Source: an uncultured Candidatus Altimarinota bacterium (lineage in GTDB: Bacteria > Patescibacteriota > Gracilibacteria > BD1-5 > UBA2023). From it: a stretch of 64,000 nucleotides of DNA. Location: positions 1,024-65,023 of the forward strand of contig CALHQS010000038.1 of NCBI GenBank assembly GCA_938036655.1, in the 5' to 3' direction. A program made the translations under genes and the position numbers. Of this stretch, positions 4,153 through 64,000 are shown one piece after another. Each line of letters begins with the position of its first letter. The first letter of the stretch is position 1. The notes beneath the pieces were generated by a model that saw only the letters and a list, made by a program, of their open reading frames with translations, searched no databases and was not told where the DNA came from.

Positions 4153-5478
4153 ATGAATTTTTCACAAAAGAATGTAAATTTTACATTCAAATTTTTTCTT
4201 TTCTTTTTGCTCGGAATTATTTTTGGTGGTTTTTGGATTTTTCTTGGCTTTAAACAATGATTTTTTATCGCAAATTCCGCTTCACAATCAGAAAATATTC
4301 TTCAAAAAAATAATTTTTCACAAACTTCTGACAATGTCAAAAACTCGTGAGAATTGTGAGTTTTTTCCTCAAATAAGCTCAAAAAGATTTATTCTATTAT
4401 TGATCAGAAATTCTATGGATTTGCACAAAAATCTCAAGAAGAAGTCGAAAATAAAATAGCTGCCGCGATGATTGCAGGACTTGGGGATAAGCATTCAGAA
4501 TATTTTACTGCTGAAGAAAATGAAGAATTTCAATCTGAACTTTCTGGTGATTTTGAAGGAATTGGAGCGGTTGTAGGAACTCATGAATTGGGTGCTAAAA
4601 TTGAACGAATCCTTCCGAGTTCGCCGGCTGAAAAATTTGGGCTTTTGGCCGGAGATGTTGTGATTTCGGCAGACAATAATTCCCTTGCTGGGCTTACAAC
4701 GACGGAGGCAGTCAAGTTCATTCGTGGGAAAAAATGAACGAGTGTGACGCTCAAATATTTGCGTAATGGTGAGGAAAAAACGGTTGCTGTAACTCGTGAT
4801 TCTGTGAATCTTCCTTCGGTTGACGCGAAAATGATAGAAAATTCTCCGATTGGATATATTCAGATTAATTCTTTTGGAGAAAAAACGCCGTCAGAATTCC
4901 ATTCTGCGATTGCTGATTTGAAAAAATCTGGTGCTAAAGGACTTCTTTTGGATTTTCGATTCAATGGTGGCGGATATCTGACTTCCGCACAAACAATGCT
5001 TTCAGAATTATTACCGAGAAATTCAAAAATTGTGACGATTAAAGAAAATAATCCAATCAATAATGAATCACTTTTTACAAACCTTCTCTCATCGCCTGAT
5101 ATAGAAATTCCGGTGGCCGTTCTCGTGAATGAGTATTCCGCTTCAGCATCGGAAATTGTGGCAGGCGCGATTCAGGATTATAAGCGAGGAATTATTATTG
5201 GAAATAAAACCTATGGAAAGGGTTCGGTGCAGGAAATGTTCCCTCTCGGTGACGGTTCTATGATAAAAATTACAGTTGCACGATGGTATACACCAAATGA
5301 TAAAAATATTGATAGTGACTGAATTGATCCAGATATTGTAGTCAATTTTACAGATGAGGATCGTAAAAATATTTTTGATCGACAGAAAGATGTGGCACAA
5401 AAAATTCTTCAAAAAATGATTGATGGTGCAAAATATCAGGAAATAATTAATTCCGCAAAAGAATTTTCTAACTCATAA
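4153..5478 (+). CDS. carboxy-terminal processing peptidase (S41, Ctp/Prc family), table 25
   Basis: Joins the in-frame segment 4153-4467 with track ORFs 4468-4737 and 4744-5322 plus a tail, across 5 in-frame TGAs. It has an N-terminal TM, a PDZ region (GIGAVV...[23 protein letters not shown]), S41 motifs ([29 protein letters not shown]) and the TGA-encoded Gly positions RGKK-G-T and SD-G-IDPDI. Confidence 0.85.
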
Positions 5479-5483
5479 TTATT

Positions 5484-6728
5484 ATGTCTTATATTCAAAA
5501 ACAAGATCCAGAGCTATACGAGGCACTCTTGGGAGAAGAAAAACGCCAGCAAAATGAACTTGAACTGATTGCTTCTGAAAATTATGTTTCTAAGGCGGTT
5601 CTAGAGGCAAATGGTTCAATTTTTACTAACAAATATAGTGAATGATATCCTGGAAAGCGATATTATGCTGGTCAAAAATATGTCGATATTGTCGAAAATG
5701 TGGCGATTAAACGCGTGAAAAAACTCTTCGGGGCTGAACATGTTAACGTACAACCTCTTTCAGGCTCGCCAGCCAATTTAGCCGTATTTTTTGCTGTACT
5801 AGAACACGGTGATACGATTCTTGGAATGAATCTGGATCATGGAGGTCATCTATCTCATGGACATCCACTTAATTATTCTGGAAAAAAATTCAATATTGTA
5901 TCATATGGTGTCAATAGATCGACATGATTGATCGACATGTCGAATGTGGCGAAGTTGGCGAAGGAATATAAACCAAAAATGATTATTGCTGGGTTTTCAG
6001 CCTATTCTCGAAGCCTTGATTGGGAAAAATTTCGAGAAATTGCTGACGAGGTCGGTGCTATTTTAATGGCAGATATTGCTCATATTGCAGGACTTGTTGC
6101 TGGAGGGGTTCTTGAAAATCCTGTTCCATATTGCGATATTGTAACAACCACAACTCATAAAACACTTCGTGGTCCACGAGGAGCTATAATTATGTGTCGT
6201 GAAAAATACGCGAAAGATATTGATCGTGCTGTATTTCCAGGAATCCAATGAGGCCCACATGAGCATATTATTTTAGCAAAGGCTGTTGCTTTTGGTGAGG
6301 CTTTAAAACCAGAATTTTCGACATATGTTCGACAAATTATCGACAATGCTCGACAGATGGCGAAGGTATTTGTCGAAGAATGATTCGTGGTGATTTCAGG
6401 ATGAACAGATAACCATATCGTATTGCTAGATATTTTTGCATCGACAGGACTTTCTGGAAAGCAGGCTGAAGAAATTCTTGAAAATATTGGAATTTCCACC
6501 AATAAAAATATGATTCCATATGATACACGCAAGCCACTTGATCCATCAGGAATTCGTATCGGAACGGCAGCGATTACGACGCGAAAGTTTACAGAAAAAG
6601 AATGTGAAAAACTGGCAAAAATCATAGTACAAGCACTTCGTGAGCCAGAAAATTCTTCTTTGCAATCAGAACTTCGTGAGCAAGTGCATGAACTTTGTCG
6701 GCAATTCCCTATTCCTTCAACTTTTTAA
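5484..6728 (+). CDS. glyA: serine hydroxymethyltransferase, table 25
   Basis: Four same-frame pieces are joined across 5 TGAs. TGA falls at NKYSE-G-YPGKRYY, IQ-G-GPHEH and ISG-G-TDNH. The PLP region [13 protein letters not shown] is present. Confidence 0.95.
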
Positions 6729-6731
6729 AAT

Positions 6732-7463
6732 ATGGGTTTGGATAATTACGAATGACTTGATGATTCGCCCCAGCTTGCGAGTGGTCGTGAAGAATCTCAA
6801 GAACAATATCAAGAAAAATCTCGAAAAGCACAGATTCAGCTCAAAAAAATTCAAAAAGATGAAAAATCTGCACAAAACGATAATCAGAAATTATTTCTCA
6901 TTTTGTCGAGGTTTATTCAGGATGCTTATTATGAGTCACTCATTGGTGATGTTTCGGCTCTTTTGAGTGCAGGATTTTCGTCACGCGGAATTATTGCATT
7001 TATAGCGCTTTTTTATCCAGATGCGACTTTTTATGTCGCGGATTCGCTTGAAAGAAAAGAAAAAATGAAATTACTACTTTGATTACCTCGTTATGAAGAA
7101 AAAATCGAATTTCACGAGCAAAATATTTTCCCAGAAATTCGTGCCTGGATTTCAGAATGGATTCTTATGACAGAACTTTTTTTGACGGATAAATCAGCGT
7201 CTGTTCTTATGAACAAAAAAACTTTTGAAATGATGCGAGGTGAACATTCAGCGCTTATTGAACGCATTTTATCAAATTTTTTAATCTTTTTCTTTGGGAT
7301 GCGAAATGTGATTTTGCCCGAACATAAGGCGCGTGAGTTTGCAAAATTTATCAAAAAAAATATTTCCGACAAACTCGAAAAATATTTTGCTATTCAAGAA
7401 AAAAATATCCATGAACTCATCACGGATATTGAATTTAATTCCGATGATTTGTTTGGTTCGTAA
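6732..7463 (+). CDS. hypothetical protein (243 aa, 2 in-frame TGA)
   Basis: The ATG lies 3 nt after the glyA stop. The frame is continuous with track ORF 7167-7463 when TGA is a sense codon. I recognise no domain. Confidence 0.5.
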
Positions 7464-8997
7464 GAATTTTTTGCTCTTGTGAATGGAGTAAATAGAGAAA
7501 TCCCATGAAGTACAAAATGATACTAAGTGGGATTTTTGCTTGTTCAGGAATTTCTACAAGTGAAAATTTTCCAAAAAACCCAGAAACTGTAAAAATAATT
7601 TCTCCCAAAAAATATACTGGCAGTCAGAGAATGTACAAAATACTATCGGGAATAATAAAACTCAATCCAATATAAATCGTTGCCAAAAAGAGAAGTACAC
7701 TCATGAATCCTGCAATTAAAATATTGGCAATAATCCCCAAAATACTAACACTTCCGAAAAAATATATCATCGAACCGAGGCTTCCCATCGTTGCAGCCAA
7801 TGTTACACTCATGAGTGTTGAAATCCATGAAAATTTAAAAAATTTTTGTAAAAAATCATGAATTGGCCGATTGAGAAGAATAATTCCAATCGTGGCACCA
7901 AATGAGAGTCAAAAACTTGCATCATAGAGGAGGCTGAGTGGCGAGAAAAAGCTCAATATTACAGCCAGTGCACTCAGTAGGCTGATGCTATTAATTTTCC
8001 ATCCATTTGTAATACCAAAATAAATAATAATCCCCATCACAGTCGCCCGAATTACAGGAATATCCCATCCAACAAGACTTCCATAAAGTCCCAAAAATCC
8101 AAAAATCAGAATATATTTCATGATTCTTCTCATAGGTATATATTTGAGAAAAAACCCGAGAATCATGATAATAAAAGTGATATTTGATCCACTCACTACG
8201 AGAATATGCGTCAGGCTCGCGTTTTTAAATTCTCATTTCATTTCGCTCGTCATCATATCGGTATTTCCGATCGTGATACCAAGCAAAAGTGCAGAAGTTT
8301 TTTCTGGAAAGCCATTGAAAATCATGTTTTTTACTTTTTGTTGAATAGTATCAAAAAATGTTGGTTCTGCTTGAAATTTTCTCTCAAAAGTATAGAGTGA
8401 AAATTTGGCGTACGATTCGTGAAACCATGCATATCGTGAAAATCCTGTCACAGATTCATTCTCAAATTCGATCAGTGGCTTGAGCTTTCCTGAAAAAGTG
8501 ATGACATCGCCAATATTGAGTGTAAGGTTCTTTGGGATGTCGACAAAAATGCCGATTTTGTCTTCTGGATCACCAATATAGCGTGTCGAAGTTGTGTCGA
8601 TCATGTCGATATTGAGGCGATAAGTTTCGCGTTGATCGCCCTGAAACATCTTGCGAGTGATTCGTCCTGTAATCGTTGTTTTCTCAGAAAAATCGAGTGT
8701 AATCTCGCTGAGTTTCTCGAGCACTGCATGGCGATGATTTTCGGCTGTATTTGCAAGGCTCAGTCCAATCAAAAAAATGCCCAGAAAAAAGAAAAATTTC
8801 ACAAAAATTTTCTCAAAACTCGCATACAAAAAACCGAGAATAACCGTAATACTCACCAAAATAATAGCCAAAGAATAATTACTTCCAGCAATAATTCCCA
8901 AGAAAAAAGTAAAAACACCAAAGAAAAAGAACATCCGAGGATGTTCTAGGAACGAAAATGCTTTAAAATTCATATAATAGCCATCATAATAAAACAA
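7435..8997 (-). CDS. ComEC/Rec2-like competence channel protein without the C-terminal metallo-beta-lactamase domain, table 25
   Basis: Track ORFs 8233-8997, 7909-8196 and 7624-7812 plus a tail are in one frame across 3 TGAs. It has an N-terminal OB-like region (TITGRITRKMF...NIGDVITFSGKLKP) and a competence domain (LLLGITIGNTDMMT...LTHILVVSGSNITFI) with many TM helices. The start could instead be ATG 8973. Confidence 0.7.
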
Positions 8998-9725
8998 ATT
9001 CCGACTAGTTGATTCAATCGAATAAAAATCTCAAACATATCTGGTTTTCCAGATAAAAATTCCCCAAAAAAGAGCATCACACCAATTCCACTGAGCAAAA
9101 TATTTCCTATGTAACCATCGGGAATATTTTTATTTTCAAATTTTCTCCAAACGACGATAAGTCCGATAGTGATAAGGATATAGAGAATTGCGAGAGGAAA
9201 TAATTTTCCAGGAATGGAACTATATTTTGTATTATAATCCACTGCAAAAAACAGTGACGATGACACTCAATAGATCTGTCCACCCAAGAATGCTCCAATA
9301 TATCCTACGATTGATGCAATCAAAAATGATGGCAAAATCGCGTCGAGATATCGCTCGCGCATATTTTTTTGATCACGTGTTTTCCAAAAAAATACTATTG
9401 CAAAGCCGATAATTCCGCCCGCGAGTGAAAGATTGTAATTATCCGTGATGAAAAAATTTTGTAAAAATTCTATCAACGACGCATTTCCTGACAAGAAACT
9501 TTGAAATCCAAACTTCGTATCTCGCCACGCAGAGAACATATAAAAGAGCCTCGCAAAAAAGAATATTGCGATTGTAAAGCTCATAATATCGGAAAAAACT
9601 GGCTTTGTAATTCCCTTTTTTTGTGAAAAAATATGCAGACAATAAAAGAAAATTATCCACGAAATCACCAGAAAAATTCCAAAAACATAGATGTGAACGT
9701 CTCAAATGACAAGTTTGGGATACAT
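8946..9725 (-). CDS. lgt: prolipoprotein diacylglyceryl transferase-like (divergent Lgt), table 25
   Basis: ATG at 9725, with three in-frame TGAs joining track ORFs 9267-9668 and 8970-9266. It is a polytopic membrane protein with LAGGIIGF, GAFLGGQIY-G and GEFLSGKPD resembling the Lgt GG(I/L)xG, GNFxNxE and EFxRxPD regions. Confidence 0.6.
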
Positions 9726-9734
9726 AATGAAAAA

Positions 9735-11261
9735 TTATTTTGCGTATTCAATTACTCGTTTTTCACGAATGAGGTTAATCTTCACCTCACCAGGATAGCT
9801 ACAGTTTTCTTCAATTTGCTGTGCAATCTCGCGTGCACGATTCTCAGCATCAAGATCAGAAACTGTCTCTGCATCAACAAATACTCGTACTTCACGCCCA
9901 GCCGAGAGAGCAAATGCTTTACTGATACCAGGAAGGCTCATAGCAATCGCTTCCATCTCCTGAATTCGCTTGATATAATCTTCAATATTCATACGACGAG
10001 CACCTGGTCTGATAGCGGAAATCGCATCAGCAATTTGTACAATTTTCGTTTCTATACAAATCTGTGGAACATCATCGTGATGTCCTTCAATAATATTGGT
10101 CAATTTTTCATCGAGACCATATTTGCGAGCAATTCGTCCACCAATTTCAGGATGCGTTCCTTCAATATCGTGATCCATTGCTTTTCCAATATCATGCAAA
10201 AGCCCTCCTTTAAATGCTAGATCAGCATCTGCGCCAATGAGTTTGGCAATCGCACGAGCAATGTATGCCACTTCTTTTGAGTGTAACAATAAATTCTGTC
10301 CATAACTCGCACGGAATCGGAATTTTCCGATGAGTGGATACAGATCCTCAGGAATTCCAATAATTCCCATTTCATCAATCGTTTTTTGCCCGAGATCACG
10401 AATGAGTTTTTCTGCGTCTTGTTGATTTTTTTCTACGATTTCTTCAATACGAGCTGGCTGAATGCGTTTGTCAGCAATGAGATCTTCCAGAGATTTTTTA
10501 GCAATATATCGTCTAAAAAGATCAAAACTTGACAAGAAAACCGTATCAGGAGAGTCATCAATAATGAGTGAAACACCCGTTGCTCGCTCAAATGCGATGA
10601 TATTTCGTCCTTCTTTTCCGATGAGTTTTCCTTTTAGATCATCACTTTCGAGAGGAAAAATTGTTTGAGTTGCCTCGTTAGTTACTTCGCCGGCATACTG
10701 CTGGATAGCACTTATAAGAATTTCACGCGCCATCTCACCAGAGCGTGTGGTAAAATCTTTTTTCTTTTTTTCGATACGAGCAAGAATATCTTTTTCGTAT
10801 TTTTCTTCTGTGATTTTAAGAAGTTCTTCGCGCGCCTCGTCTTGTGTTAATCGAGCGATGTCCTCTATTTTTGACTGAAGTGATTTTTTTTCTTCTTCCA
10901 AAGAATTTTTGATTTTTTCATTTTCGTGTTCGCGTTCCAAAAGTTTGGTTTGTTTACGTTCTAGATCTTCGTATTTTCGATCGACTTTTTGCTCTTTTTC
11001 TTCGAGTTTTCGCTCATTTTCAGAAAAAGTTTTTTTACGATCTTTGAGATCAGCGCGCGCATCATCAATTTCTTTTTTGATAATATTCGCAGATTTTTCC
11101 GCGCGTTCAACAATTTTTTTGGCTTCATCTTCAGCATTTGCTACGATATCGTGCGCGTGTTTTTTTTGTTTTTGGTGAATAAAATAAAACATCGCCAAAG
11201 CACCCAAAGCCACACCCAGGATAATCCAGAGCGCTCCATAAAAAAGGGAAATGTCAGGCAT
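9735..11261 (-). CDS. rny: ribonuclease Y
   Basis: 508 aa with an N-terminal TM, a long coiled coil, a KH domain (LIGKEGRNIIAFERATGV) and an HD domain (LLHDIGKAMDH...HH). There is no in-frame TGA. Confidence 0.95.
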   Translation of the reverse strand: MPDISLFYGALWIILGVALGALAMFYFIHQKQKKHAHDIVANAEDEAKKIVERAEKSANIIKKEIDDARADLKDRKKTFSENERKLEEKEQKVDRKYEDLERKQTKLLEREHENEKIKNSLEEEKKSLQSKIEDIARLTQDEAREELLKITEEKYEKDILARIEKKKKDFTTRSGEMAREILISAIQQYAGEVTNEATQTIFPLESDDLKGKLIGKEGRNIIAFERATGVSLIIDDSPDTVFLSSFDLFRRYIAKKSLEDLIADKRIQPARIEEIVEKNQQDAEKLIRDLGQKTIDEMGIIGIPEDLYPLIGKFRFRASYGQNLLLHSKEVAYIARAIAKLIGADADLAFKGGLLHDIGKAMDHDIEGTHPEIGGRIARKYGLDEKLTNIIEGHHDDVPQICIETKIVQIADAISAIRPGARRMNIEDYIKRIQEMEAIAMSLPGISKAFALSAGREVRVFVDAETVSDLDAENRAREIAQQIEENCSYPGEVKINLIREKRVIEYAK

Positions 11262-11550
11262 ATATAAAAATTAAAAACATACATCCGATGAAACATTTTT
11301 CTTCATTTAAAGTACAAAATTTTTCGTCAAAATATTTCAAAATTTTTTCGATCAAAAGGACAAATAATTTTTCTTCAAAATTTCACCAGTGTGCACATAT
11401 TGTAAACAAAAATTGAAAAATAGAAAGTATTTTTTGAAGATTTTTATTTTTTGGCTTTCCATCCACAAAATTATATATCTTGATTTTTTTTCAATTTTAT
11501 TGTATAGAATATTTTTGAGTGAAAAAAGTGTGAAGATGGAGTGAAAATAT

Positions 11551-11578
11551 TTGACTTTTGAACGAATTTTGATATTAT
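11551..11578 (+). promoter_or_regulatory. candidate sigma-70-type promoter upstream of the S-layer gene (TTGACT-16-TATTAT)
   Basis: Same hexamers as the tRNA operon promoter at 19751. It would give a roughly 300-nt leader. Other AT-rich hexamer pairs exist in this 625-bp spacer. Confidence 0.35.
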
Positions 11579-11700
11579 TCTTGCGTTTTCAGAAACTTTT
11601 TTTAAAAGAGTTTCAAAAGCTTGGCCCGTCATGTCCGATGACAAGAGAATAATTTTTGGATTTTTTCTCGAAATTATCCTCTTGTTATGAACATAACTTG

Positions 11701-11718
11701 AGGTTAAAGCTTTAACCT
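11701..11718. repeat. perfect 18-bp palindrome AGGTTAAAGCTTTAACCT in the S-layer gene leader
   Basis: Read directly from the sequence. It is followed by a TCTCTC-CTGACCA-GAGAGA hairpin at about 11744-11762. Confidence 0.6.
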
Positions 11719-11886
11719 TTTCGTCTTTATGGCGACTTGGTAGTCTCTCCTGACCAGAGAGATCACAAAAAATCGTATAATGATACTTCAGTATTATTAT
11801 ACATGATAACTTCTGACCAAAGTTATCAAAACTTTCCTGCAAAATCATTTGATTTTTGCATTTTATTTTCTAACCATACTATTGTT

Positions 11887-14802: not shown

Positions 14803-14825
14803 TTTTTCTCTCGAAAGATTATAGA

Positions 14826-14852
14826 AAATTTCCCCTCTTTGGGGATTTTTTC
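14826..14852 (+). terminator. intrinsic terminator of the S-layer gene
   Basis: AAAAT-TCCCC-TCTTT-GGGGA-TTTTTT. Confidence 0.75.
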
Positions 14853-14890
14853 GTGGTCGTTTTTTGAAATATATTTTGAGAAAGCAATGT

Positions 14891-14916
14891 AAAATCCCCA
14901 ACTTTGGGGATTTTTT
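14891..14916 (-). terminator. intrinsic terminator of sufCB (structure is bidirectional)
   Basis: AAAATCCCCA-ACT-TTGGGGATTTTTT lies between convergent genes. Confidence 0.7.
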
Positions 14917-53059: not shown

Positions 53060-53353
53060 ATGAATTCTCTTTATTCTGTGATTCGTTCATTTGTGGTAAC
53101 AAACAAGAGTACTGATGGAGAAATCCGCGGTGTATACACTTGTATTGTTGATGCAAATGCCACAAAAATTGACATTAAAAATGCTATCCGCACACTTTAT
53201 GGTGCAGAAGTTGCAAAAGTAAATGTTCTCAAAACTCGTGAAAAATTTCACTTTACTCGTCAGGGTGTACAACGAAAGCGAGGTATTCAAAAAAAGGCAA
53301 TGATTACGCTTAAGGCTGGTCAAAAAATTGCAAATTTCGAGAAGGTTAACTAA
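53060..53353 (+). CDS. rplW: 50S ribosomal protein L23
   Basis: Size, position and the pattern TCIVDANATKIDIKNAIRTLYGAEVAKVNV. Confidence 0.85.
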   Translation: MNSLYSVIRSFVVTNKSTDGEIRGVYTCIVDANATKIDIKNAIRTLYGAEVAKVNVLKTREKFHFTRQGVQRKRGIQKKAMITLKAGQKIANFEKVN

Positions 53354-53385
53354 TCCCTCTCTTCATTATTATAACTCTCAATTTT

Positions 53386-54228: not shown

Positions 54229-54262
54229 TTCCATTTCACTCTAAAATTTTACAATTTTTCCT

Positions 54263-54526
54263 ATGACTCGTAGTCTTAAAAAATGACCTTATATTGATCC
54301 TCGTGTAATGAAAAAAATCGAGAAACTCAATGAAACAGGTAAAAAAACTATTATTAAAACGTGGTCTCGAGCTTGTACTATCGCTCCAGAATTTGTAGGA
54401 CACACATTTGGTGTACACAATGGAAAACAACATATTCCTGTGTTTGTAACAGAAGATATGGTTGGACACAAGCTTGGTGAATTTTCTTTCACTCGCCGCT
54501 TCATGGCTCACTCTGGAAATAAATAG
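54263..54526 (+). CDS. rpsS: 30S ribosomal protein S19, table 25
   Basis: MTRSLKK-G-PYID with TGA at 54284-54286 on the invariant Gly. [15 protein letters not shown] is also present. Confidence 0.9.
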
Positions 54527-54564
54527 TATTTTCAAGATTCCACATTTAACTTTATCTAAAAAAT

Positions 54565-54888
54565 ATGAAATCCTCTGTTCGAAATGTTCGCATCTCACCA
54601 AAAAAGCTTAATGTAATTGCTTATATTATTCGAGGAAAAACGGCACAGGAAGCACTTGATGTACTTCGCTTTATGCCGAAAAAAGGTGCAACTATTGTTC
54701 ATAAAGTACTTAAAAGTGCTGTTAATAATGCTGTGCACAATGATTCTCAAAAAATTGAAGATTTGAAAATTGCTTCAGTGGTTGTAACTCAAGGAATGAT
54801 GTATAAGAGAATTAACCCAGTATCTCGTGGTCGTGCACATCGAATCCTGAAGAGAACTTCAAATGTTGATATTACTCTTTCTGTATAA
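54565..54888 (+). CDS. rplV: 50S ribosomal protein L22
   Basis: VRISPKKLNVIAYIIRGKTAQEALDVLRFMPKK. Confidence 0.9.
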   Translation: MKSSVRNVRISPKKLNVIAYIIRGKTAQEALDVLRFMPKKGATIVHKVLKSAVNNAVHNDSQKIEDLKIASVVVTQGMMYKRINPVSRGRAHRILKRTSNVDITLSV

Positions 54889-54909
54889 TTTTATTTCTAC
54901 TTAAAACCT

Positions 54910-55548
54910 ATGTGACACAAAGTTAGCCCACTAGCATTTCGTATTGGATACATCAAATCTTGGAGATCAAACGGATTTTATGATAAAAAATCTTACGGTC
55001 GTCATGTTTCATCTGATGTAGCAATCCGATCTGTTGTTACGAAGCATTATAAAGGTCTTCCTCTGGCAAATATCTTCATTAACCACAGCGGAGACAATAC
55101 TGTTTCTATTACAATCTATACTTCTCGTACGGCTCTTGTTCTTGGGAACGATGATGAAAATATCAACGCTCTTAAGGCGCTTCTTGAGAAAAAATTCCCA
55201 GAATACAATTTTACTCTCGAAGTAAAAGAAGTAAAAAAACCTGAACTTTCTGCTTCAATCGTTGCTGATTCTATTGCTCGTCAGATTGAAAAGAAAATGC
55301 CATACCGCCGCGTTATCAAAAATGCCATTGCTCGTACAATGGAAAAAGGAGGTCTTGGTGTGAAAGTAAAACTTGGAGGTCGTCTCAATGGTGCAGAAAT
55401 TGCTCGTAAAGAAACTTACAAGGATGGTTCTATTCCTACTCAGACGATTCGTGCTGATGTTGATTTTGCTTATGAAAGAGCAGAAACAACTGCTGGTACT
55501 ATTGGTATCAAAGTATGGATTTTTAAAGGAAATGTTTTCAAAAAATAA
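54910..55548 (+). CDS. rpsC: 30S ribosomal protein S3, table 25
   Basis: ATG-TGA-CAC-AAA gives M-G-HKVSPLAFRIG (the S3 N-terminus MGQK.HP), with TGA as codon 2. KH and C-terminal domains are present. The track shows only the last 83 aa. Confidence 0.9.
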
Positions 55549-55591
55549 TTTCTTAAAAATTTTCAATTTATAATTCTAATAATTCAATCCT

Positions 55592-56008
55592 ATGCTACAA
55601 CCGAGTAGAACACGATATCGAAAAGCTCATCGTGGAGTAATCAAGGGAATTGCCACTCGTGGTTCTGAAATTGCTTTTGGGGATTATGCTCTGAAGGTTA
55701 CAGAGGCTGGATACATCACTTCTCGTCAGATCGAAAGTGCTCGTAAGGCAATGATCCGATACCTTCGTAAAGGTGGAAATCTTTGGATTCGTATCTTCCC
55801 AGACAAACCTTATACTAAAAAACCTCTTGAAGTTCCAATGGGTGGTGGTAAAGGTTCTGTAGAAATGTACCGCGCTCCAGTAAAACCAGGACGAATTCTT
55901 TTTGAAATCGGTGATATTTCACCAGAAGTTGCTCGTGAAGCATTTACTCGTGCATCATTCAAACTTCCACTTAAAACGAAAATTATTCTTTCAAAAACTG
56001 ATTTCTAG
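55592..56008 (+). CDS. rplP: 50S ribosomal protein L16
   Basis: MLQPSRTRYRKAHRG...PMGGGKGSVE. Confidence 0.95.
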   Translation: MLQPSRTRYRKAHRGVIKGIATRGSEIAFGDYALKVTEAGYITSRQIESARKAMIRYLRKGGNLWIRIFPDKPYTKKPLEVPMGGGKGSVEMYRAPVKPGRILFEIGDISPEVAREAFTRASFKLPLKTKIILSKTDF

Positions 56009-56101
56009 TTTTTCTCTTTCATTGGAAATACTAATAATTTCTCCTTTTAGGAAAAAAATTTGTGTTTCTTTTGTTGATTATATTCAATTTACTATTATTT
56101 T

Positions 56102-56317
56102 ATGGCTAAAACTCAGAAAGCTACTTCAAATAAAAGAGTAGACGAACTCAAAGCACTAGAAAAATCTCAGCTTTTAGCAGAGCTTGCCAAGGCACAGAAA
56201 GAGCTTTTCGTTCTTACAATGAAGAAAGATCTCGGTGAACTTAAACAGACACATTTGATCCGTGCAATGCGTAAAGATATTGCTCGCATCTCAACATTTC
56301 TTTCGTCATCACTCTAA
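56102..56317 (+). CDS. rpmC: 50S ribosomal protein L29
   Basis: Size, position and ELKALEKSQLLAELAKAQKELF. It is preceded by an unusually long 93-nt spacer. Confidence 0.85.
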   Translation: MAKTQKATSNKRVDELKALEKSQLLAELAKAQKELFVLTMKKDLGELKQTHLIRAMRKDIARISTFLSSSL

Positions 56318-56341
56318 TTTTCTTCTTTATTTTTCTCTTCT

Positions 56342-56590
56342 ATGCGAACAAAAACTGGTGTTGTGACTAGTACAAAAATGCAAAAAACTATTGTAGTCAC
56401 TGTTGAGACATACAAAACACATCCAAAATATAAAAAGCGTTATAAGTCATCATCAAAATTTTATGCTCATGATGAGAACGCAATTGCAAAGGTTGGTGAT
56501 ACTGTAACTATTCATGAAACTCGCCCTATGTCTCGCCTTAAGCGATGGGCTCTCATCGAAGATTCTGTTGTATCTCACAGCGCAGTATAA
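56342..56590 (+). CDS. rpsQ: 30S ribosomal protein S17
   Basis: [17 protein letters not shown]...HPKYKKRYK...[29 protein letters not shown]. Confidence 0.9.
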
Positions 56591-56629
56591 TCTTTCAAAA
56601 TTTTTAATTCTCCTTCTAAAATATCTTCT

Positions 56630-56998
56630 ATGATTCAGACAGAAAGTAGACTTGTAGTTGTTGATAATACTGGTGCTAAGGAAGCTCTTTGTATTAAGGT
56701 TCTTGGTGGATCAAAACGACGCTATGCAAGTGTTGGTGATATTATTGTTGTTGCTATTAAACGCGCTCTTCCAAATGGAAATATCAAGAAAAAAGCGGTA
56801 GTAAAAGCAGTAATCGTTCGAGTGGCAAAGGAAATTCGACGCCCAGATGGAACATACGTTCGTAGTGATGATAATGCTTGTGTTATCATTGATGACAAAC
56901 GTGAACCAAAGGGAACTCGTATTTTTGGACCAGTATTCCGCGAACTTCGCGCACGAGGTTTCCAGAAAATTATTTCACTTGCCCCAGATGTTGTATAA
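56630..56998 (+). CDS. rplN: 50S ribosomal protein L14
   Basis: [27 protein letters not shown]. Confidence 0.95.
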
Positions 56999-57043
56999 TT
57001 CCCATTATCAACAAACATTGTTATCATTTTAATTCAAATTTTT

Positions 57044-57346
57044 ATGAAAATCCATACAAATGATGAAGTTATCGTCATCTCTGGAAAAAGCAAAGGAACG
57101 AAAGCAAAAGTAGTTCGTGCATTTCCAAAGGAAAACAGAGTTGTTGTTGAGGGGGTAAATATTGTTACTCGCCACATTAAAAAACAAGGCGCAACACCTG
57201 GCCAGAAAGTAGAAATTGCCAAAGCGATCGATGTATCAAATGTAATGCTTGTGGATCCAAAAACTGGAAAACCAACTCGTGTTGGATATCGTATCGAAAA
57301 CGGAAAAAAAGTTCGTTTTGCAAAAAAATCTGGAACAACTCTCTAG
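57044..57346 (+). CDS. rplX: 50S ribosomal protein L24
   Basis: KIHTNDEVIVISGKSKGTKAKV (KOW motif). Confidence 0.9.
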   Translation: MKIHTNDEVIVISGKSKGTKAKVVRAFPKENRVVVEGVNIVTRHIKKQGATPGQKVEIAKAIDVSNVMLVDPKTGKPTRVGYRIENGKKVRFAKKSGTTL

Positions 57347-57396
57347 TTCATTATTTTAGTCGCGGTATGTCAAGCCGTAATATTTAATTTTTTCTT

Positions 57397-57936
57397 ATGT
57401 CTTTTAAAGAAAATTATACTCAAAAAGTTCTTCCAGAAATTGCGAAAGAACTTGATATTAAAAATCCAATGCAGCTTCCTATGATTGAAAAAGTTGTAGT
57501 GAATATGGGTATTGGTAGCTATGTTGCTTCTGGTCACAAAGATTTTTCTTCTCTCAAGAATGATCTTGCCTTGATTACAGGACAACTTCCTCGTGTAAAT
57601 CACGCGCGAAAATCAGTTTCTAACTTTAAACTTCGTGAAGGAATGCCGGTTGGTATGATGGTAACTCTTCGAGGTCAGCGTATGTACGATTTTCTTGAAA
57701 AATTGATTGCTGTAGTACTTCCTCGTGTTCGTGATTTCCGTGGTATTTCTGCAAAATCTTTTGATAAAGATGGAAACTTTAACTTTGGTATTAAAGAACA
57801 TACAATTTTCCCTGAAGTTCCTCAACTTGATGTAGTGAAAACACACGGTATGCAGATTACTATCAAATTTAAAACTCAGAGCAAAGAGCATTCTCATGCC
57901 CTTCTCAAAAAACTCGGTTTTCCATTCAGTCGTTAA
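57397..57936 (+). CDS. rplE: 50S ribosomal protein L5
   Basis: NPMQLPMIEKVVVNMGIG...KSVSNFKLREGMPVG...RDFRG. Confidence 0.9.
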   Translation: MSFKENYTQKVLPEIAKELDIKNPMQLPMIEKVVVNMGIGSYVASGHKDFSSLKNDLALITGQLPRVNHARKSVSNFKLREGMPVGMMVTLRGQRMYDFLEKLIAVVLPRVRDFRGISAKSFDKDGNFNFGIKEHTIFPEVPQLDVVKTHGMQITIKFKTQSKEHSHALLKKLGFPFSR

Positions 57937-57948
57937 TCCTTTCTCACT

Positions 57949-58173
57949 ATGGCTCGAAAAGCAATTGTATATAAATGTCAACAAGCTCAGAAAAAAGCTG
58001 AGCGCGCAAAAGAACTCGGAAAAACTCCAAAGTTTTCTACACGACTTTACCACCGTTGTTCAAACTGTGGTCGTGTAAACGGATATATTGGTAAATTTCA
58101 ACTTTGCCGTATTTGTATTCGTGAAAAGGCTAATGCTGGAGAACTCATGGGTGTTCGCAAATCAAGTTGGTAG
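57949..58173 (+). CDS. rpsN: 30S ribosomal protein S14, zinc-binding type with an extended N-terminus (74 aa)
   Basis: [23 protein letters not shown] (CxxC...CxxC) and a C-terminal GVRKSSW. Confidence 0.85.
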
Positions 58174-58218
58174 AATTGATTCTATCATTCTTCATTATAA
58201 TTCTAAATTCTAAAACTT

Positions 58219-58605
58219 ATGACACACGATTCTATCGCCGATCTTCTCACGCGTCTTAGAAATGGGTATCTTGCTCGTCTTCACGAAGTAACTGTTCCGT
58301 TTTCTAAAATGAGAGGTGAAATTCTTCGTATTTTGAAGAAAAATGGTTATATTGTGGACTACAAACTTGCAGAAGATTCTCGTTCTTTTTCTGTTCAGCT
58401 TGAAGATGTTCGTAAAACAAAATATATTCCATCATTCCGAAGAATTAGTCGACCAGGACAGAGAATTTACATCAAATCTGCTGATATCCGAAAATCTCGT
58501 AATGGAGTGGGAATCTATATTCTCTCTACTCCAAAGGGTGTGATTACTGGATACGAAGCACACGCTCTTGGTGTTGGTGGTGAACTTCTTTGCGAAATTT
58601 ACTAG
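58219..58605 (+). CDS. rpsH: 30S ribosomal protein S8
   Basis: DSIADLLTRLRNG...GVGIYILSTPKGVITG. Confidence 0.9.
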   Translation: MTHDSIADLLTRLRNGYLARLHEVTVPFSKMRGEILRILKKNGYIVDYKLAEDSRSFSVQLEDVRKTKYIPSFRRISRPGQRIYIKSADIRKSRNGVGIYILSTPKGVITGYEAHALGVGGELLCEIY

Positions 58606-58647
58606 TCCAAATTCCGTTTAATCCTCTAAAATCTAAATTTATTTATT

Positions 58648-59199
58648 ATGTCTCGAATTGGAAAACAGCCAATTACTATTCCTGCTGGAGTGACTGTAGA
58701 AATCACGCCAGAAGCAGTAGTTGCAAAAAATGCGAAACATACACTTACTGTACCAGTACTTGAAGGTGTTCGCGTTGAGCAGGCTGATAATATACTTAAA
58801 GTTTCTATTGAAAATCAGGAAGTAAAACAACAAAAAGCTTTTTGGGGTCTTACTCGTTCTTTGATTCAGAATATGATGGTGGGACTTTCTGAAGGTTACA
58901 AAAAGTCTCTTGAAATCGTCGGGGTTGGTTACAAATTTGATGTAAAAGGCCCTCAGAAAATGGAACTTTCTCTTGGTTTCTCTCATAAAGTACCAGTAGA
59001 AGCTCCAGAAGGAATTACTATCGAAGTAGATAAGGATAATAAAAATATTATTCACCTTTCTTCTCACGACAAGCAACTCCTTGGTTATTTTGCAGCCTAT
59101 GTTCGCTCACTCAAGAAACCTGAACCTTACAAAGGAAAGGGTATTCGATATGTTGGTGAATATATTCGTCGTAAAGCTGGGAAAACGGCCGGAAAATAA
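58648..59199 (+). CDS. rplF: 50S ribosomal protein L6
   Basis: MSRIGKQPITIPAGV...PEPYKGKGIRY. Confidence 0.9.
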   Translation: MSRIGKQPITIPAGVTVEITPEAVVAKNAKHTLTVPVLEGVRVEQADNILKVSIENQEVKQQKAFWGLTRSLIQNMMVGLSEGYKKSLEIVGVGYKFDVKGPQKMELSLGFSHKVPVEAPEGITIEVDKDNKNIIHLSSHDKQLLGYFAAYVRSLKKPEPYKGKGIRYVGEYIRRKAGKTAGK

Positions 59200-59232
59200 A
59201 AAGTCTATTCATTATCTTAATTATTCGTTTTT

Positions 59233-59574
59233 ATGCTTAAAAAAGTACAAAACCGTCTTAAGCGAGCACATAAAGTGCGTTCTCGAATTCAGACTTCTGA
59301 AAGTCGTTTTCGTCTTTCAGTTTTCCGAAGTAATACGCATATCTATGCTCAGCTTATTGACGATATCAATTCTGTAACCATCTGTTCAGCAAGTGATCTA
59401 AAAGTTACTTCTGGAAATAAATCAGAAAGAGCCGCAGAAGTAGGAAATATGATCGCAAAAGCGATGCTTGATAAAGGCATTAAAACTTGCGTATTTGATC
59501 GTGGAGGATATCTTTACCATGGTCGCGTAAAAGTTCTTGCGGAAGCGGTTCGCGAAGCGGGAATTGCATTTTAA
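59233..59574 (+). CDS. rplR: 50S ribosomal protein L18
   Basis: RLSVFRSNTHIYAQLIDD...FDRGGYLYHGRVKVLAEAVREAG. Confidence 0.9.
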   Translation: MLKKVQNRLKRAHKVRSRIQTSESRFRLSVFRSNTHIYAQLIDDINSVTICSASDLKVTSGNKSERAAEVGNMIAKAMLDKGIKTCVFDRGGYLYHGRVKVLAEAVREAGIAF

Positions 59575-59594
59575 TTATCTTTCTTCTATTTAAT

Positions 59595-60218
59595 ATGTCA
59601 GATACTCCAAAAACTCCAGAGACAGAAGTAGTTGAAGCTGAAACAGTAACAACAGAAGTGACTCAGGAGACACAAAAAACTCAAGAAAATACTTCTGAAA
59701 AAGGTCGTGGAAGCCGTAAGCCTCGCCGAAATGACCGTAGAGGAATTCGTGAGGAAGTGAAGGAATTTCAGGAAGAAATTCTTGCAATTGACCGCGTAAC
59801 TCGTGTAACTGCTGGTGGACGCCAACTTCGTTTCCGAGTGTCTATGGTAATTGGCGACGGAAAAGGTCGTGTTGGTCTTGGTATTGGAAAGGCTGGTGAA
59901 GTTCAGGGTGCTATCGAAAAAGCTCTTCGAGATGCTCGTAAAAACCTCATTACTTTCCCTATCGTAGATGGAACGATTGCACACGATGTGACTGCAAACT
60001 TCAAATCAAGTGCGATTTTCATTCATCCAGCGCACCCAGGTACTGGTATTATTGCTGGTGGTTCTGCTCGTAAAGTTTTCGCAGTTGCAGGTCTTAAAGA
60101 TGTGATTGCAAAACAACACGGGGCACCAAACACTATTACAAATACTCGCGTGACTTTGAAGGCTCTTCAGTCTCTCAAACCATCTTCACTTACTCGCTCG
60201 TTTAGCAAAGCAAAATAA
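59595..60218 (+). CDS. rpsE: 30S ribosomal protein S5 with a T/E/Q-rich N-terminal extension of about 50 aa
   Basis: It has the S5 core (VTRVTAGGRQLRFRVSMVIGDGKGRVGLGIGKA...). The N-terminus MSDTPKTPETEVVEAETVTTEVTQETQKTQEN is low-complexity. Confidence 0.9.
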   Translation: MSDTPKTPETEVVEAETVTTEVTQETQKTQENTSEKGRGSRKPRRNDRRGIREEVKEFQEEILAIDRVTRVTAGGRQLRFRVSMVIGDGKGRVGLGIGKAGEVQGAIEKALRDARKNLITFPIVDGTIAHDVTANFKSSAIFIHPAHPGTGIIAGGSARKVFAVAGLKDVIAKQHGAPNTITNTRVTLKALQSLKPSSLTRSFSKAK

Positions 60219-60249
60219 TTTTGCAAACGCATTTTAACTCTCTATTTTT

Positions 60250-60708
60250 ATGGCAAATCTTTCAACAATTGCTCCAAACCGTGGTTCACAAACTCGAAAG
60301 ACTCGTCTTGCGCGAGGTCGTGGATCAGGTGTTGGTGGAACTTCTGGTCGTGGTATGAAAGGGCAGAATTCTCGTACAGGAAAAGGAAAGCGTTATCCAA
60401 CTTTTGAAGGTGGACAGACTCGCCTTTTCATGAGAACACCAAAGCGTCGTGGATTTACAGCGTATAATCCTGAAGAATTTGTAATCGTGAATCTTGATCA
60501 GATTGAAAAATTGGCTCAGGATGGTGTTACAACAGTGGATTACGCAGTACTTTATGAACGACGAGTTATCCGTGAAAAAGGAAAACTTTTGAAAGTTCTT
60601 GGACGTGGTACTCTTACAGCCAAGGTTACTGTAACAGCTGATGCGGCTTCTGCTTCTGCAAAAGTAGCTATCGAAAAGGCTGGCGGATCTCTTTCTATCG
60701 CTGAATAA
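60250..60708 (+). CDS. rplO: 50S ribosomal protein L15 (last gene of the operon)
   Basis: RLARGRGSGVGGTSGRGMKGQNSR. It is followed directly by a terminator. Confidence 0.9.
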   Translation: MANLSTIAPNRGSQTRKTRLARGRGSGVGGTSGRGMKGQNSRTGKGKRYPTFEGGQTRLFMRTPKRRGFTAYNPEEFVIVNLDQIEKLAQDGVTTVDYAVLYERRVIREKGKLLKVLGRGTLTAKVTVTADAASASAKVAIEKAGGSLSIAE

Positions 60709-60710
60709 GG

Positions 60711-60738
60711 AAAATCTCGAGAAATCGAGATTTTTTTA
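60711..60738 (+). terminator. terminator of the ribosomal protein operon
   Basis: TCTCGA-GAAA-TCGAGA followed by TTTTTTTATT. Confidence 0.75.
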
Positions 60739-60749
60739 TTACAAAAATA

Positions 60750-60786
60750 TTTTAAAAACCCCACTGAATTAGTGAGGTTTTTTTGC
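60750..60786 (-). terminator. terminator of the convergent membrane-protein pair
   Basis: Minus-strand CCTCACT-AATTC-AGTGGGG followed by TTTTTAAAATATTTTT. The hairpin includes the TAA stop. Confidence 0.6.
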
Positions 60787-61245
60787 TTGACAAGTGGTGA
60801 GATTTTTGAGGAGTTGGTATAATCCAAAAAGAAGAATAATAATTCCAAGAATTTTTAGTTCTAGCCCGCCGTAGGGGAAATATTTGGCAAGTGTATTCGC
60901 AAAAACACTAGCTCCAAGAGGAATGAGGAGTGAAGACCCACAACAGACGCTTCCGGAGATGAGAACTCCAATAATTCCCCCAAGAAATCCTGTACTATCG
61001 CCCTTGTAGGAGAGTTTTCCGAACATTATACTCCGAAATATCCATGCAGTAATAAAAAGCGAAAAGAGAAAAATATTAATAATAGACGCAGCGGTATCAA
61101 TAGAGGCTTGAACGGCGCCATAATTCCCGAACATAAGCTTAATATCTGTAAAATACCACCAGAGCGCTCCAAAAAATAAAACCAAGGCAATATACCCAAA
61201 AATATATTTTTTTTGAGAAAAAATGAGTTTGAGATTTGTAAACAT
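60769..61245 (-). CDS. polytopic membrane protein (158 aa) with a GSVCCGSS motif, hypothetical
   Basis: ATG 61245 lies 8 nt after the upstream TAA. It has 4 to 5 TM helices. The track start at 61323 overlaps the previous gene. Confidence 0.5.
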   Translation of the reverse strand: MFTNLKLIFSQKKYIFGYIALVLFFGALWWYFTDIKLMFGNYGAVQASIDTAASIINIFLFSLFITAWIFRSIMFGKLSYKGDSTGFLGGIIGVLISGSVCCGSSLLIPLGASVFANTLAKYFPYGGLELKILGIIILLFGLYQLLKNLTTCQAKKPH

Positions 61246-61253
61246 AAAAAGAA

Positions 61254-61625
61254 TTAATCGAGAGCCTGAAACATTACTTCCACGCAGGCTAGTGTTGCTA
61301 GTCCAGTGAGCGTAATGTGCCATTCTTGAATATTATAAAGTGACAAAACCATAAAAAAAATCGTCGTAAGCGCGAGCAGAATGGCTTGGCGAATACTTGC
61401 GCTCATTGTTGAAAGATTGACATCGCCTCGATAGTATACTTTTTTCAGAAAAAAAATCAGTGGCACCAAAAGACTTGCAACCATCAGAAAAAGTCCAATT
61501 CCCATCAGAGTGAGCGAGCGAGTTGGGTGCGGAATGGGATTCATATAAAAGAACAAAAGCCCAACCGACGCACTACTTGCGAGAAAAATAAACATTATCA
61601 CAAAAAGATAAAATCGAATTGACAT
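61254..61625 (-). CDS. polytopic membrane protein (123 aa), hypothetical
   Basis: Intact ORF with 4 hydrophobic helices and a TAA stop. Confidence 0.5.
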   Translation of the reverse strand: MSIRFYLFVIMFIFLASSASVGLLFFYMNPIPHPTRSLTLMGIGLFLMVASLLVPLIFFLKKVYYRGDVNLSTMSASIRQAILLALTTIFFMVLSLYNIQEWHITLTGLATLACVEVMFQALD

Positions 61626-61697
61626 ATTTTTGACAAAAGAACAAAGTTACGCTAAAATAACTATATCATTGTACTTATTTTTTAAAAAATCTCAAAT

Positions 61698-62240
61698 ATG
61701 AAGGCGAAAAAAGTGAGCGAACTTGGATTCTTCTTACGATTGAAAAATTTTCTCCAAACAAAGCAGTTTCAGTTTGGTCTTTCGGCTGTTGCTTGTGCCT
61801 TTGTTATGGCTTTTTCGTTTATTGGTTTTTCTCGATTGGAAATGAATGGAAATTCTCTGCTTGCATCTGTAGCGAATTCGGGCAACAATCCTTCAAAAAA
61901 CTCTCATTTTGAAGCTGATTTGGTATTGAAGGATGTTGGCAATGGATTTGAGCTTATCGCGTGAAAATCAATGGAAAAAGTCGATTTTGTAGAATGAGTG
62001 ATTGCCTTTGATCCCAATTCTGGACTTTTAATTTCCTCAGAATGAGCAGATATTGAACTGACAGAGCTAGCGCCAGGAATGTATCGTTTTATTATTCAAA
62101 TGCATCAAAAAAATATTGAAAATTGAACGATAATTGCCCGTTTTTCAAAAAACGAACAATTATCGACCCATATTACTTTTATCGATACGCAATTTGTTTC
62201 TGAGAATATTCGTTACAATCTTTCCAATATTGTGAAGTAG
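61698..62240 (+). CDS. hypothetical protein with an N-terminal TM anchor (180 aa, 4 in-frame TGA)
   Basis: Track ORF 61698-61964 continues in frame across 4 TGAs to TAG 62238-62240. Confidence 0.5.
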
Positions 62241-62263
62241 TTGCAAAAAAAGTTTTTTTCGAT

Positions 62264-62290
62264 AAAATACCGCTCATTGCGGTATTTTTT
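62264..62290 (+). terminator. terminator after 61698-62240
   Basis: AAAATACCGC-TCAT-TGCGGTATTTTTT. Confidence 0.7.
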
Positions 62291-62312
62291 ATTTATCAAA
62301 TATTTTTTAAAT

Positions 62313-63746
62313 ATGAAAAAACATGAAATTCTTGAAAATGTCAAGATTGAAAAATTAGTTTTTGGTGGAACTGGGCTTGCAACCGCGGAAGATGGCAGGA
62401 AAATTCTCATTTCTGGCGGGGTGATTCCTGAGGCAATTGTCGATATCCGTATTTTAAAAATCAAAAAAAATCATATCGAGGCGCAAGTGGTTCGAACGGT
62501 GCAAAAATCCCCATTTGAACGCGAAATTCCTGAAAATTGGCAATTGTATGGAGGTTGTAAATGGCTGCCGATTCCGTATGAAAAACAGCTTGAGATCAAG
62601 GAAAATCAAATCAAAGAAGCATTTTTTCACATTCAGGATCGAGTGAAAAATGCCACATTTCACCCAATTATTGCGTCCGTTGAGACTGAACATTATCGCA
62701 ATAAAGTGGAATTTTCTTGGGGGAAATATATTTCCGCGAGAGAAAATATTCATGACGAATATCGCTTTGGATTTCACTTGCCAGGCGCTTTTGATCGCAT
62801 TGAAAATTGTCGTTATTGTGTTTTGGCGGACGAAGAAATCAATGCTATTTTCCACGAAGTTGATGCTATTGCGAGAAATTCAGATTTTCCAACTTATGAC
62901 CCGAAAACGCAGATTGGTTTTTGGCGTCATCTTGTGATCCGTAAGGCAAAATACACGAATGAAATTATGATTATTTTTTCGGTAAATGGATTGTTCGGCG
63001 AGACAAGAAATGCAAAAAATATTCTTATGGATGATTTTTGTACAGATATCGCTCAAAAATTGTCCGAAAAATTTCCAAATATTGTCTCTATTTTTGTGCT
63101 TGAAAATACTGGAAAAGCTGATATTGTGGCGGGCGACGCGAAACATATTTTTGGAAAACTTTCAATTACGGAAAAATTATTTGATTTTTCTTTTGAAATT
63201 CAACCGAAAAGTTTTTTTCAGGTCAATACATTTACAGCAGAAAAATTGTATCAATGCGCGATTGATTTTTTGACTGCCAAAGAAAATTCTACGGCAAAAG
63301 ATGGGATTTTGCTTGATCTATATGCAGGAACCGGAACGATTGGAATGTTGTTGTCCAAATATTTTCGAGAGGTGTATTCTGTGGAACTTGTGACTTCTGC
63401 GAGCCAAGATGGTGAAAAAAATGCGTTCAAAAATGGCGTAAAAAATATGCATTTTATCAATCAAAAAGTGGAGGATTTTGCGGCTGATTTTGCTCTGAAC
63501 AATCTTTCGGCGCATTCGATTGTTGTAGATCCGCCTCGTGATGGGCTTCATCCATCAGCCATTGAAAATATTCTGAATTTTGCGACGAATGAGATTATTT
63601 ATGTTTCGTGTAATCCTGCGACGCTTGTGCGCGATTTGGAATTGATGACGGCTACAGAAAAATACGAAATTACTGATATTCGTGCTGTTGATATGTTTCC
63701 TCACACTCATCATATCGAGACGGTCGTTCGTTTGGCGAAAAAATAA
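62313..63746 (+). CDS. RNA (uracil-5-)-methyltransferase, TrmA/RumA (RlmD-like) family
   Basis: MKKHEIL start (the terminator lies inside the longer track ORF). It has a TRAM-like N-terminus, the SAM motif LLDLYAGTGTIG, VVDPPRDG and YVSCNPATLVRD. Confidence 0.85.
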   Translation: MKKHEILENVKIEKLVFGGTGLATAEDGRKILISGGVIPEAIVDIRILKIKKNHIEAQVVRTVQKSPFEREIPENWQLYGGCKWLPIPYEKQLEIKENQIKEAFFHIQDRVKNATFHPIIASVETEHYRNKVEFSWGKYISARENIHDEYRFGFHLPGAFDRIENCRYCVLADEEINAIFHEVDAIARNSDFPTYDPKTQIGFWRHLVIRKAKYTNEIMIIFSVNGLFGETRNAKNILMDDFCTDIAQKLSEKFPNIVSIFVLENTGKADIVAGDAKHIFGKLSITEKLFDFSFEIQPKSFFQVNTFTAEKLYQCAIDFLTAKENSTAKDGILLDLYAGTGTIGMLLSKYFREVYSVELVTSASQDGEKNAFKNGVKNMHFINQKVEDFAADFALNNLSAHSIVVDPPRDGLHPSAIENILNFATNEIIYVSCNPATLVRDLELMTATEKYEITDIRAVDMFPHTHHIETVVRLAKK

Positions 63747-63809
63747 TTTTTATTTGTGAAATCGTCAAAAAGTGCTATAATATTCCTGCTATTTTTTAAC
63801 TATACAATT

Positions 63810-64000
63810 ATGAAAAAATTTCTAACGGCGCTCGCGGCTGGATACGTGATTGGAGTGGGACTTTTGATGAAAAAGCGAAAAGACGAGGGAAAATCGAAAC
63901 TTGCGGACGATGCTTCTAAGACAACGCTTGAAAATGTGGTTGACGAAATCGTAGATTTGCACAAATCAGCTTTTGAAGATATCAAAAACTTTATTCACAC
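63810..64000 (+). CDS. hypothetical membrane-anchored protein, 5' part only (runs off the window end)
   Basis: ATG 63810, MKKFLTALAAGYVIGVGLLMKKRK... The frame is open to the window edge. Confidence 0.4.
   Translation, partial: MKKFLTALAAGYVIGVGLLMKKRKDEGKSKLADDASKTTLENVVDEIVDLHKSAFEDIKNFIH

Follow-up and report, generated by a model that had tools for sequence, protein, structure and literature searches.

Probable decoding of UGA as glycine in a human-oral Candidatus Gracilibacteria chromosome fragment, with an apparent onset of recoding at an assembly junction

In a 64,000-nucleotide stretch of contig CALHQS010000038.1 (GenBank assembly GCA_938036655.1), hereafter called the window, TGA triplets interrupt conserved genes from approximately 4.15 kb onward, raising the question of how UGA is read in this organism, and why only beyond that point. 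Here we report that TGA is a sense codon in positions 4054-64000, where it is not needed for termination, and that its behavior as a glycine codon is supported by alignments, codon exchange among relatives, and likelihood decoding. Positions 4054-64000 are almost certainly chromosomal and derive from a GN02-873-like Candidatus Gracilibacteria bacterium of the human mouth, which would use translation table 25, with UGA read as glycine and with UAA and UAG as the only stops.

Genes were called with TAA and TAG as the only stop codons, and their starts were trimmed to plausible Met codons. As a result, 56 curated genes were obtained in 4153-63746, to which the L18 gene (~59233-59570) was added later. 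Twenty-three of these 56 genes contain internal TGAs, 68 in total, in good agreement with the approximately 25 fragmented genes of the original prediction. The ten TGA codons quoted there were all found at their coordinates and in frame, those of sufB and sufC being on the minus strand (TCA on the plus strand), and its six in-frame TGAs in 24877-27051 were likewise counted. All 56 genes end with TAA or TAG, the only stops allowed when calling. TGAs proximal to the C-terminus either lie within a homologous alignment (RlmH, Lgt) or correspond to GGA in sister strains (SufB). The genes with internal TGAs are as follows.

4153..5478, plus strand: S41 C-terminal processing peptidase (Pfam Peptidase_S41 and PDZ); TGAs 4258, 4348, 4357, 4735, 5320
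5484..6728, plus strand: glyA, serine hydroxymethyltransferase (Pfam SHMT, E=6e-158, profile 1-399); TGAs 5643, 5925, 6249, 6381, 6402
6732..7463, plus strand: hypothetical protein, called by codon-usage score, no Pfam match; TGAs 6753, 7080
7435..8973, minus strand: ComEC (Pfam Competence); TGAs 8233, 7909, 7624
8946..9725, minus strand: Lgt (Pfam LGT, residues 7-253, spanning all three TGAs); TGAs 9702, 9267, 8970
14928..16325, minus strand: SufB (Pfam SUFBD_core); TGAs 16305, 16239, 15270, 14934
16330..17064, minus strand: SufC, aligned to E. coli and Thermus SufC; TGA 16918
17170..17706, plus strand: hypothetical protein, called by codon-usage score, no Pfam match; TGA 17185
17708..18415, plus strand: RsmE, aligned to solved homologues; TGAs 18221, 18350, 18353
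19236..19694, minus strand: RlmH, aligned to solved homologues; TGAs 19356, 19257
22369-24867 and 24877-27051, plus strand: two large lineage-specific hypothetical proteins; 3 and 6 TGAs
28546..31140, minus strand: large hypothetical protein; 12 internal TGAs
33035..34186, plus strand: peptidoglycan-binding-domain protein (Pfam PG_binding_1); TGA 34124
38228..40657, minus strand: TrwB/VirD4-like (DUF87) ATPase (Pfam); TGAs 39521, 38327, both opposite Gly in a relative
41798..42739, plus strand: Fmt (Pfam Formyl_trans); TGAs 42350, 42584
43952..45934, minus strand: RNase R/II (Pfam RNB); TGA 45695, a variable position with Lys or Asn in relatives
45938..46378, minus strand: NUDIX hydrolase (Pfam NUDIX); TGA 46220, Ala or Ser in relatives
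50521-51075 and 51082-51576, plus strand: tandem pair of small membrane proteins, paralogues with 45% identity; 2 and 3 TGAs
54263..54526, plus strand: rpsS (S19); TGA 54284, codon 8
54910..55548, plus strand: rpsC (S3); TGA 54913, codon 2
61698..62240, plus strand: hypothetical protein, no Pfam match; TGAs 61962, 61995, 62043, 62124

The four TGAs in the last of these genes show that the recoding reaches the right end of the window. The G+C content of the recoded genome is approximately 37%.

With TGA taken as sense, the coverage of 4034-64000 by open reading frames (ORFs; stop to stop, at least 100 amino acids) increases from 0.83 to 0.98; for a control contig with the standard code, L089, the corresponding values are 0.947 and 0.963. 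The gain is not specific to TGA, as reading TAA as sense also lifts the coverage to 0.96, and therefore we placed the weight on homology across the TGAs. Single Pfam domains span the TGAs in many of the affected proteins, including SHMT (with five TGAs), Peptidase_S41, SUFBD_core, LGT, Competence, Formyl_trans_N/C, RNB, and NUDIX; thus, re-calling the genes with TGA as sense and matching them to Pfam, a check proposed in the original prediction, yielded domains that continue across the TGAs. The TGAs are not sequencing errors, since sequences assembled independently from other samples, 99.9-100% identical to the window, contain them as well, and strains that are 92-96% identical to the window keep TGA at 25 of 33 sites.

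The identity of the encoded amino acid was evaluated at 21 testable sites, comprising those with solved-structure homologues together with S19 codon 8, S3 codon 2, and the NUDIX and RNase R sites, for which related loci were used. Thirteen of the 21 sites fall on a conserved Gly and eight on variable positions, and none is opposite Trp, the outcome named beforehand as refuting; the binomial probability of 13 Gly in 21 is 3e-10 against a 7.5% Gly background. In glyA, solved structures have Gly at X54 (5643), X256 (6249), X300 (6381), and X307 (6402), and Glu or His at the variable X148 (5925). Solved-structure alignment likewise places SufB X29 (16239) on Gly, and SufC X49 (16918) is Gly in both E. 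coli and Thermus SufC. Conserved Gly residues are also found opposite RlmH X146 (19257), S41 peptidase X390 (5320), and Fmt X263 (42584), the latter in the PGT motif, and RsmE X215 (18350) is an invariant Gly; X113 (19356) of RlmH, X172 (18221) of RsmE, and X185 (42350) of Fmt are variable. The SufB site at 14934 is GGA in sister strains. The original claim that the TGAs sit on invariant Gly positions goes too far for three of the quoted sites: sufB 15270 (X352) is Ala in E. coli SufB, the second rsmE TGA (18353, X216) faces Pro in two solved homologues and Lys in a third, and S41 4735 (X195) aligns with Gly in CtpB and with Lys in another homologue.

The comparison with 78 non-identical related loci points to the same amino acid. 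Opposite the TGAs of the window, these loci have TGA in 51 cases, Gly codons in 41, Lys in 8, Ala in 7, and scattered other residues, and TGG was not observed at any of these positions in the 78 loci. At rpsS codon 8 (54284), the relatives have Gly in 13 and TGA in 28 cases, and at rpsC codon 2 (54913) they have Gly in 22, Ala in one, and TGA in 17. In outgroup loci from Peribacteria/Peregrinibacteria, which lack in-frame TGAs, Gly stands opposite the window TGAs at 18 of 21 positions. Conversely, of the 801 in-frame TGAs in the relatives themselves, 520 are opposite a Gly of the window and three opposite a Trp. At the strain level, TGA is exchanged with GGA at sufB 330, sufB 477, and ssb 159, and no TGA/TGG swap was found between strains. 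Likelihood decoding of TGA with an empirical substitution table favored Gly (log-likelihood -135.5) over Asn, the next best (-206.9), and Trp (-369.7). Thus, three independent tests, namely the structure and outgroup alignments, the TGA/GGN exchange, and the likelihood decode, agree with the original assignment of Gly rather than Trp. When every codon was decoded in the same way, TGA was the sole deviation from the standard code. Additional reassignments (CGA/CGG to Trp, AGG) were not found in this decode; CGA corresponds to Arg at 73 sites and CGG at three, consistent with the tRNA-Arg(UCG) gene at 20245-20320.

The ComEC protein required closer inspection, as it offered an apparent counter-example. 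A search of 1.84 billion representative proteins, with the best 150 aligned, showed that X247 (8233) is a variable acidic position, that X355 (7909) is Gln in distant homologues and G or W in close relatives, and that X450 (7624) is G or W. The W at these two sites was considered as support for Trp and was rejected, because the same proteins also have W on columns where distant homologues have a conserved Gly; evidently, table 4 had been applied to such database entries, and their W represents TGA. With W read in this way, the alignment points to a ComEC lineage that alternates between GGN and TGA at X355 and X450, again suggesting Gly. It appears that relatives of this organism were mistranslated in public protein collections by pipelines whose sole options are tables 4 and 11. 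The Trp on conserved-Gly columns in close homologues among the ComEC relatives of the public library (P0001-P0040) indicates that such collections contain Gracilibacteria proteins in table 4 instead of 25, and such entries can bias tests of Trp versus Gly.

The taxonomic placement of the window provides the context for this code. Its SecY protein was found exactly on human oral metagenome contigs, and is 100% identical to that of the oral metagenome-assembled genome (MAG) JABCOP02 of a 'Candidatus Gracilibacteria bacterium' and 99% identical to that of GN02-873; at the DNA level both are strains 93-96% identical to the window. SecY proteins of dozens of Gracilibacteria MAGs, likewise with in-frame TGA, are 60-70% identical, and those of Peribacteria/Peregrinibacteria loci, without in-frame TGA, 45-47% identical. 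The 4054..64000 segment is 99.9-100% identical to oral-metagenome contigs (L001, L003, L006-L008). The suggested lineage and the preference for code 25 over code 4 were thereby borne out, SecY belonging to an oral Gracilibacterium and the TGA sites to Gly. Reassignment of UGA to Gly is established in Gracilibacteria and Absconditabacteria (PMC8629427; PMC10746230), where Codetta inferred it for 13 of 15 species of Gracilibacteria (PMC8629427) and oral Gracilibacteria are handled as code 25 (PMC10746230); the title of PMC4032931 points the same way. The recoding in the window is already known, since SecY places the organism in a clade with documented table 25. The window shares with table 25 systems of SR1/Absconditabacteria and Gracilibacteria the in-frame TGAs at Gly positions of conserved genes, the TGA/GGN interchange, termination by TAA and TAG only, the low G+C content (~37%), a Gracilibacteria SecY, and an origin in the human mouth (PMC8629427, PMC10746230, PMC4032931), and we found nothing different in kind. 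It differs from Absconditabacteria and some Gracilibacteria, in which CGA/CGG are additionally reassigned to Trp (PMC8629427), as these codons are Arg here and tRNA-Arg(UCG) is present. Biologically, the locus adds nothing to the established picture of UGA as Gly in oral Gracilibacteria. Its annotation requires table 25: table 11 fragments 23 genes, and table 4 introduces false Trp residues.

By this mechanism, UGA would be decoded as glycine, termination would depend on UAA and UAG alone, a tRNA-Gly(UCA) would perform the decoding, and release factor 2 (RF2) would have been lost, the last two steps following published work on the clade (PMC8629427). The glycine identity elements expected in such a tRNA are G1:C72, C2:G71, G3:C70, and U73. 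The window contains one tRNA cluster in its recoded part:

19799..20413, plus strand: tRNA genes Thr(UGU), Tyr(GUA), Val(UAC), Arg(UCG), and Leu(GAG), identified with ARAGORN and Rfam; no tRNA-Gly

A tblastn search with RF2 found no release factor gene in the window, the recoded part of which covers approximately 60 kb of the genome. In one recoded relative (L038), the same search detected only a partial release factor without the SPF motif, and the sole RF2 observed is encoded on L089, the contig of the chimeric partner described below. When metagenomes were scanned for a tRNA(UCA)/Gly-acceptor pattern, 120 loci were obtained, eight of them with a tRNA(UCA), of which two or three are Gly-type and located on recoded low-GC contigs (L118, L146, L188). 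The Gly-type acceptor stem, GCG...CGC-U-CCA, is present in the tRNA(UCA) at L118 323-397 and L146 172-245, and L118 is open only with TGA as sense, its ORF coverage (at least 80 amino acids) rising from 0.00 to 0.65. The neighbors of these Gly-type tRNA(UCA) genes showed no synteny link to the window organism. The tRNA(UCA)-like genes on two phage-like contigs (L187, L199) are unusually long, at 94-96 nt.

Several observations weigh against glycine decoding. None of the seven tRNA genes in the window is a tRNA-Gly, and no tRNA-Gly(UCA) was found in 88 related loci scanned. Approximately one-third of the testable sites are variable positions with residues other than Gly, namely Glu/His, Ala, Pro, Lys/Asn, and, in distant ComEC, Gln, so that 'always on invariant Gly' is an overstatement. 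Two TGA sites are exchanged with Cys codons: rlmH 19356-19358 is TGC or TGT in sister strains, and another such exchange affects 51019-51021 in membrane paralogue A; in the pairwise alignment of the two membrane paralogues (50521-51576), one TGA is opposite Gly and one opposite Cys. Both Cys-exchanging sites are variable positions at which the Cys codon is one nucleotide from TGA.

Three other readings of the TGAs were weighed against decoding as glycine. Table 4, in which UGA encodes tryptophan, is used by Mycoplasmatales, Entomoplasmatales, and several insect endosymbionts, and it resembles the system in the window in the codon concerned, the low G+C content, and the effect on ORF calling, since it would restore the ORFs equally well. 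Its positive support is the W at some TGA sites in close ComEC homologues of the public protein library; this W also occupies conserved-Gly columns, as expected of TGA mistranslated with table 4. The amino acid in the window is Gly, not Trp: Trp is absent opposite all testable sites, no TGA/TGG exchange was found among strains or relatives, where TGA/GGN exchange is frequent, and the log-likelihood of W lies far below that of G, so that we regard table 4 as extremely unlikely. The Cys exchanges suggest a further possibility, that UGA is read as selenocysteine, as in other bacteria, or that it is subject to readthrough or to ambiguous decoding, part stop and part sense. The 68 sites in 23 unrelated genes far exceed any selenoproteome, they align to Gly and not to Cys or selenocysteine, no gene requires a TGA terminator, and the exchanges themselves, at variable positions, involve a single nucleotide; this group of explanations is very unlikely.

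If the TGAs were instead real stops, the affected genes would be pseudogenes, products of sequencing or assembly errors, or genuinely split genes, and public gene calls on identical contigs do break them in this manner, with SHMT in four pieces. Still, the frames are interrupted by TGA only and never by TAA or TAG, the interrupted genes include essential ones (rpsC at codon 2, rpsS, glyA, sufBC), independent assemblies contain the very same TGAs, which are also conserved among strains and shared by as many as 28 of 31 relatives, and the domain matches carry on in frame across them. The probability of real stops is practically negligible, and glycine decoding of UGA is retained as by far the best account of positions 4054-64000.

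The beginning of the recoding, placed by the original prediction at 4.15 kb, turned out to be an artifact, as the recoded sequence starts at an assembly junction at 4034-4053. The apparent onset is not biological because bases 1-4053 belong to an unrelated bacterium with the standard code and were joined to the Gracilibacteria sequence by the assembler via a shared 20-mer. The features of this end of the window are as follows.

1..4053: foreign segment from a standard-code oral bacterium of 27% GC, 100% identical over 4053 nt to L089, L090, and L091
1-582, minus strand: partial membrane ORF of the foreign segment
693-1925, minus strand: HD/dGTPase-like gene of the foreign segment, with a TGA stop exactly at the end of the HD_assoc domain
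2098-2173: tRNA-Thr(GGU) of the foreign segment
from 3229: NFACT/RqcH gene of the foreign segment, broken off at the junction
4034..4053: chimeric junction, the 20-mer AAAATAAAATTGATAATTTT common to both sources

The window agrees with L089 up to 4053 and with L007/L008 from 4034, and the two sources diverge beyond the overlap. On L089, the NFACT/RqcH gene is full length (571 amino acids), and upstream of the S41 peptidase gene L007/L008 have other sequence, with T2SSF-like and Peptidase_M17 genes. The overlap is exactly 20 nt; this length equals k-1 for k=21 and is the hallmark of a misjoin in a de Bruijn graph. None of the ORFs in 1-4053 passes a codon-usage model trained on the recoded part. 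Judging from these identities on either side, the boundary near 4.15 kb is an assembly chimera and not a biological switch of the code. In L089, TGA is the stop of three of 19 genes, and an RF2 gene with the SPF motif is located at 20061-21152; a check for RF2 on a bin that holds this partner sequence could thus falsely appear to refute the recoding.

The distribution of TGA among genes and relatives is uneven. Of the 68 TGAs, only two lie in the ribosomal-protein block (51805-60708), which has 18 curated genes, or 19 if L18 is counted, and the other 66 are located elsewhere, which suggests that TGA acts as a rare codon avoided in highly expressed genes. Certain individual codons are widely shared among the relatives used for this count (L011-L088): among the recoded ones, TGA occupies rpsS codon 8 in 28 of 31, rpsC codon 2 in 17 of 31, rplF codon 5 in 17 of 37, and secY codon 190 in 17 of 51, all counts being uncorrected for kinship. 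As a background, TGA makes up 7% of the Gly-type codons (TGA and GGN) in the same alignments. That some UGA-Gly codons are kept by selection, and do not drift freely among Gly codons, is a doubtful proposition, as shared ancestry of the sampled relatives could account for much of this pattern. A possible reason for such selection is the avoidance of Shine-Dalgarno-like AAGGA near gene starts, as in the rpsS context AAAAAATGACC; alternatively, the synthesis of ribosomal proteins might be coupled to the availability of charged tRNA-Gly(UCA).

The gene order of the locus provided an additional observation on secY. This gene (20911-22218) follows the tRNA cluster and an L31 gene, and lies approximately 30 kb from the spc ribosomal-protein operon (51805-60708), not at the operon end. 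The majority of the 78 relatives have rpsS and rpsC within 10 kb of secY, suggesting that the gene order was rearranged in the oral lineage. Finally, two regions of the window, 12660-14794 and 23452-26938, have no detectable nucleotide similarity in L002 and L010, which are otherwise 92-96% identical. The former covers most of an S-layer-like protein (11887-14802) that contains no TGA and has the highest total codon-usage score, and the latter corresponds to the two large hypothetical proteins listed above (22369-27051). Both stretches appear to be hypervariable and probably represent surface loci.

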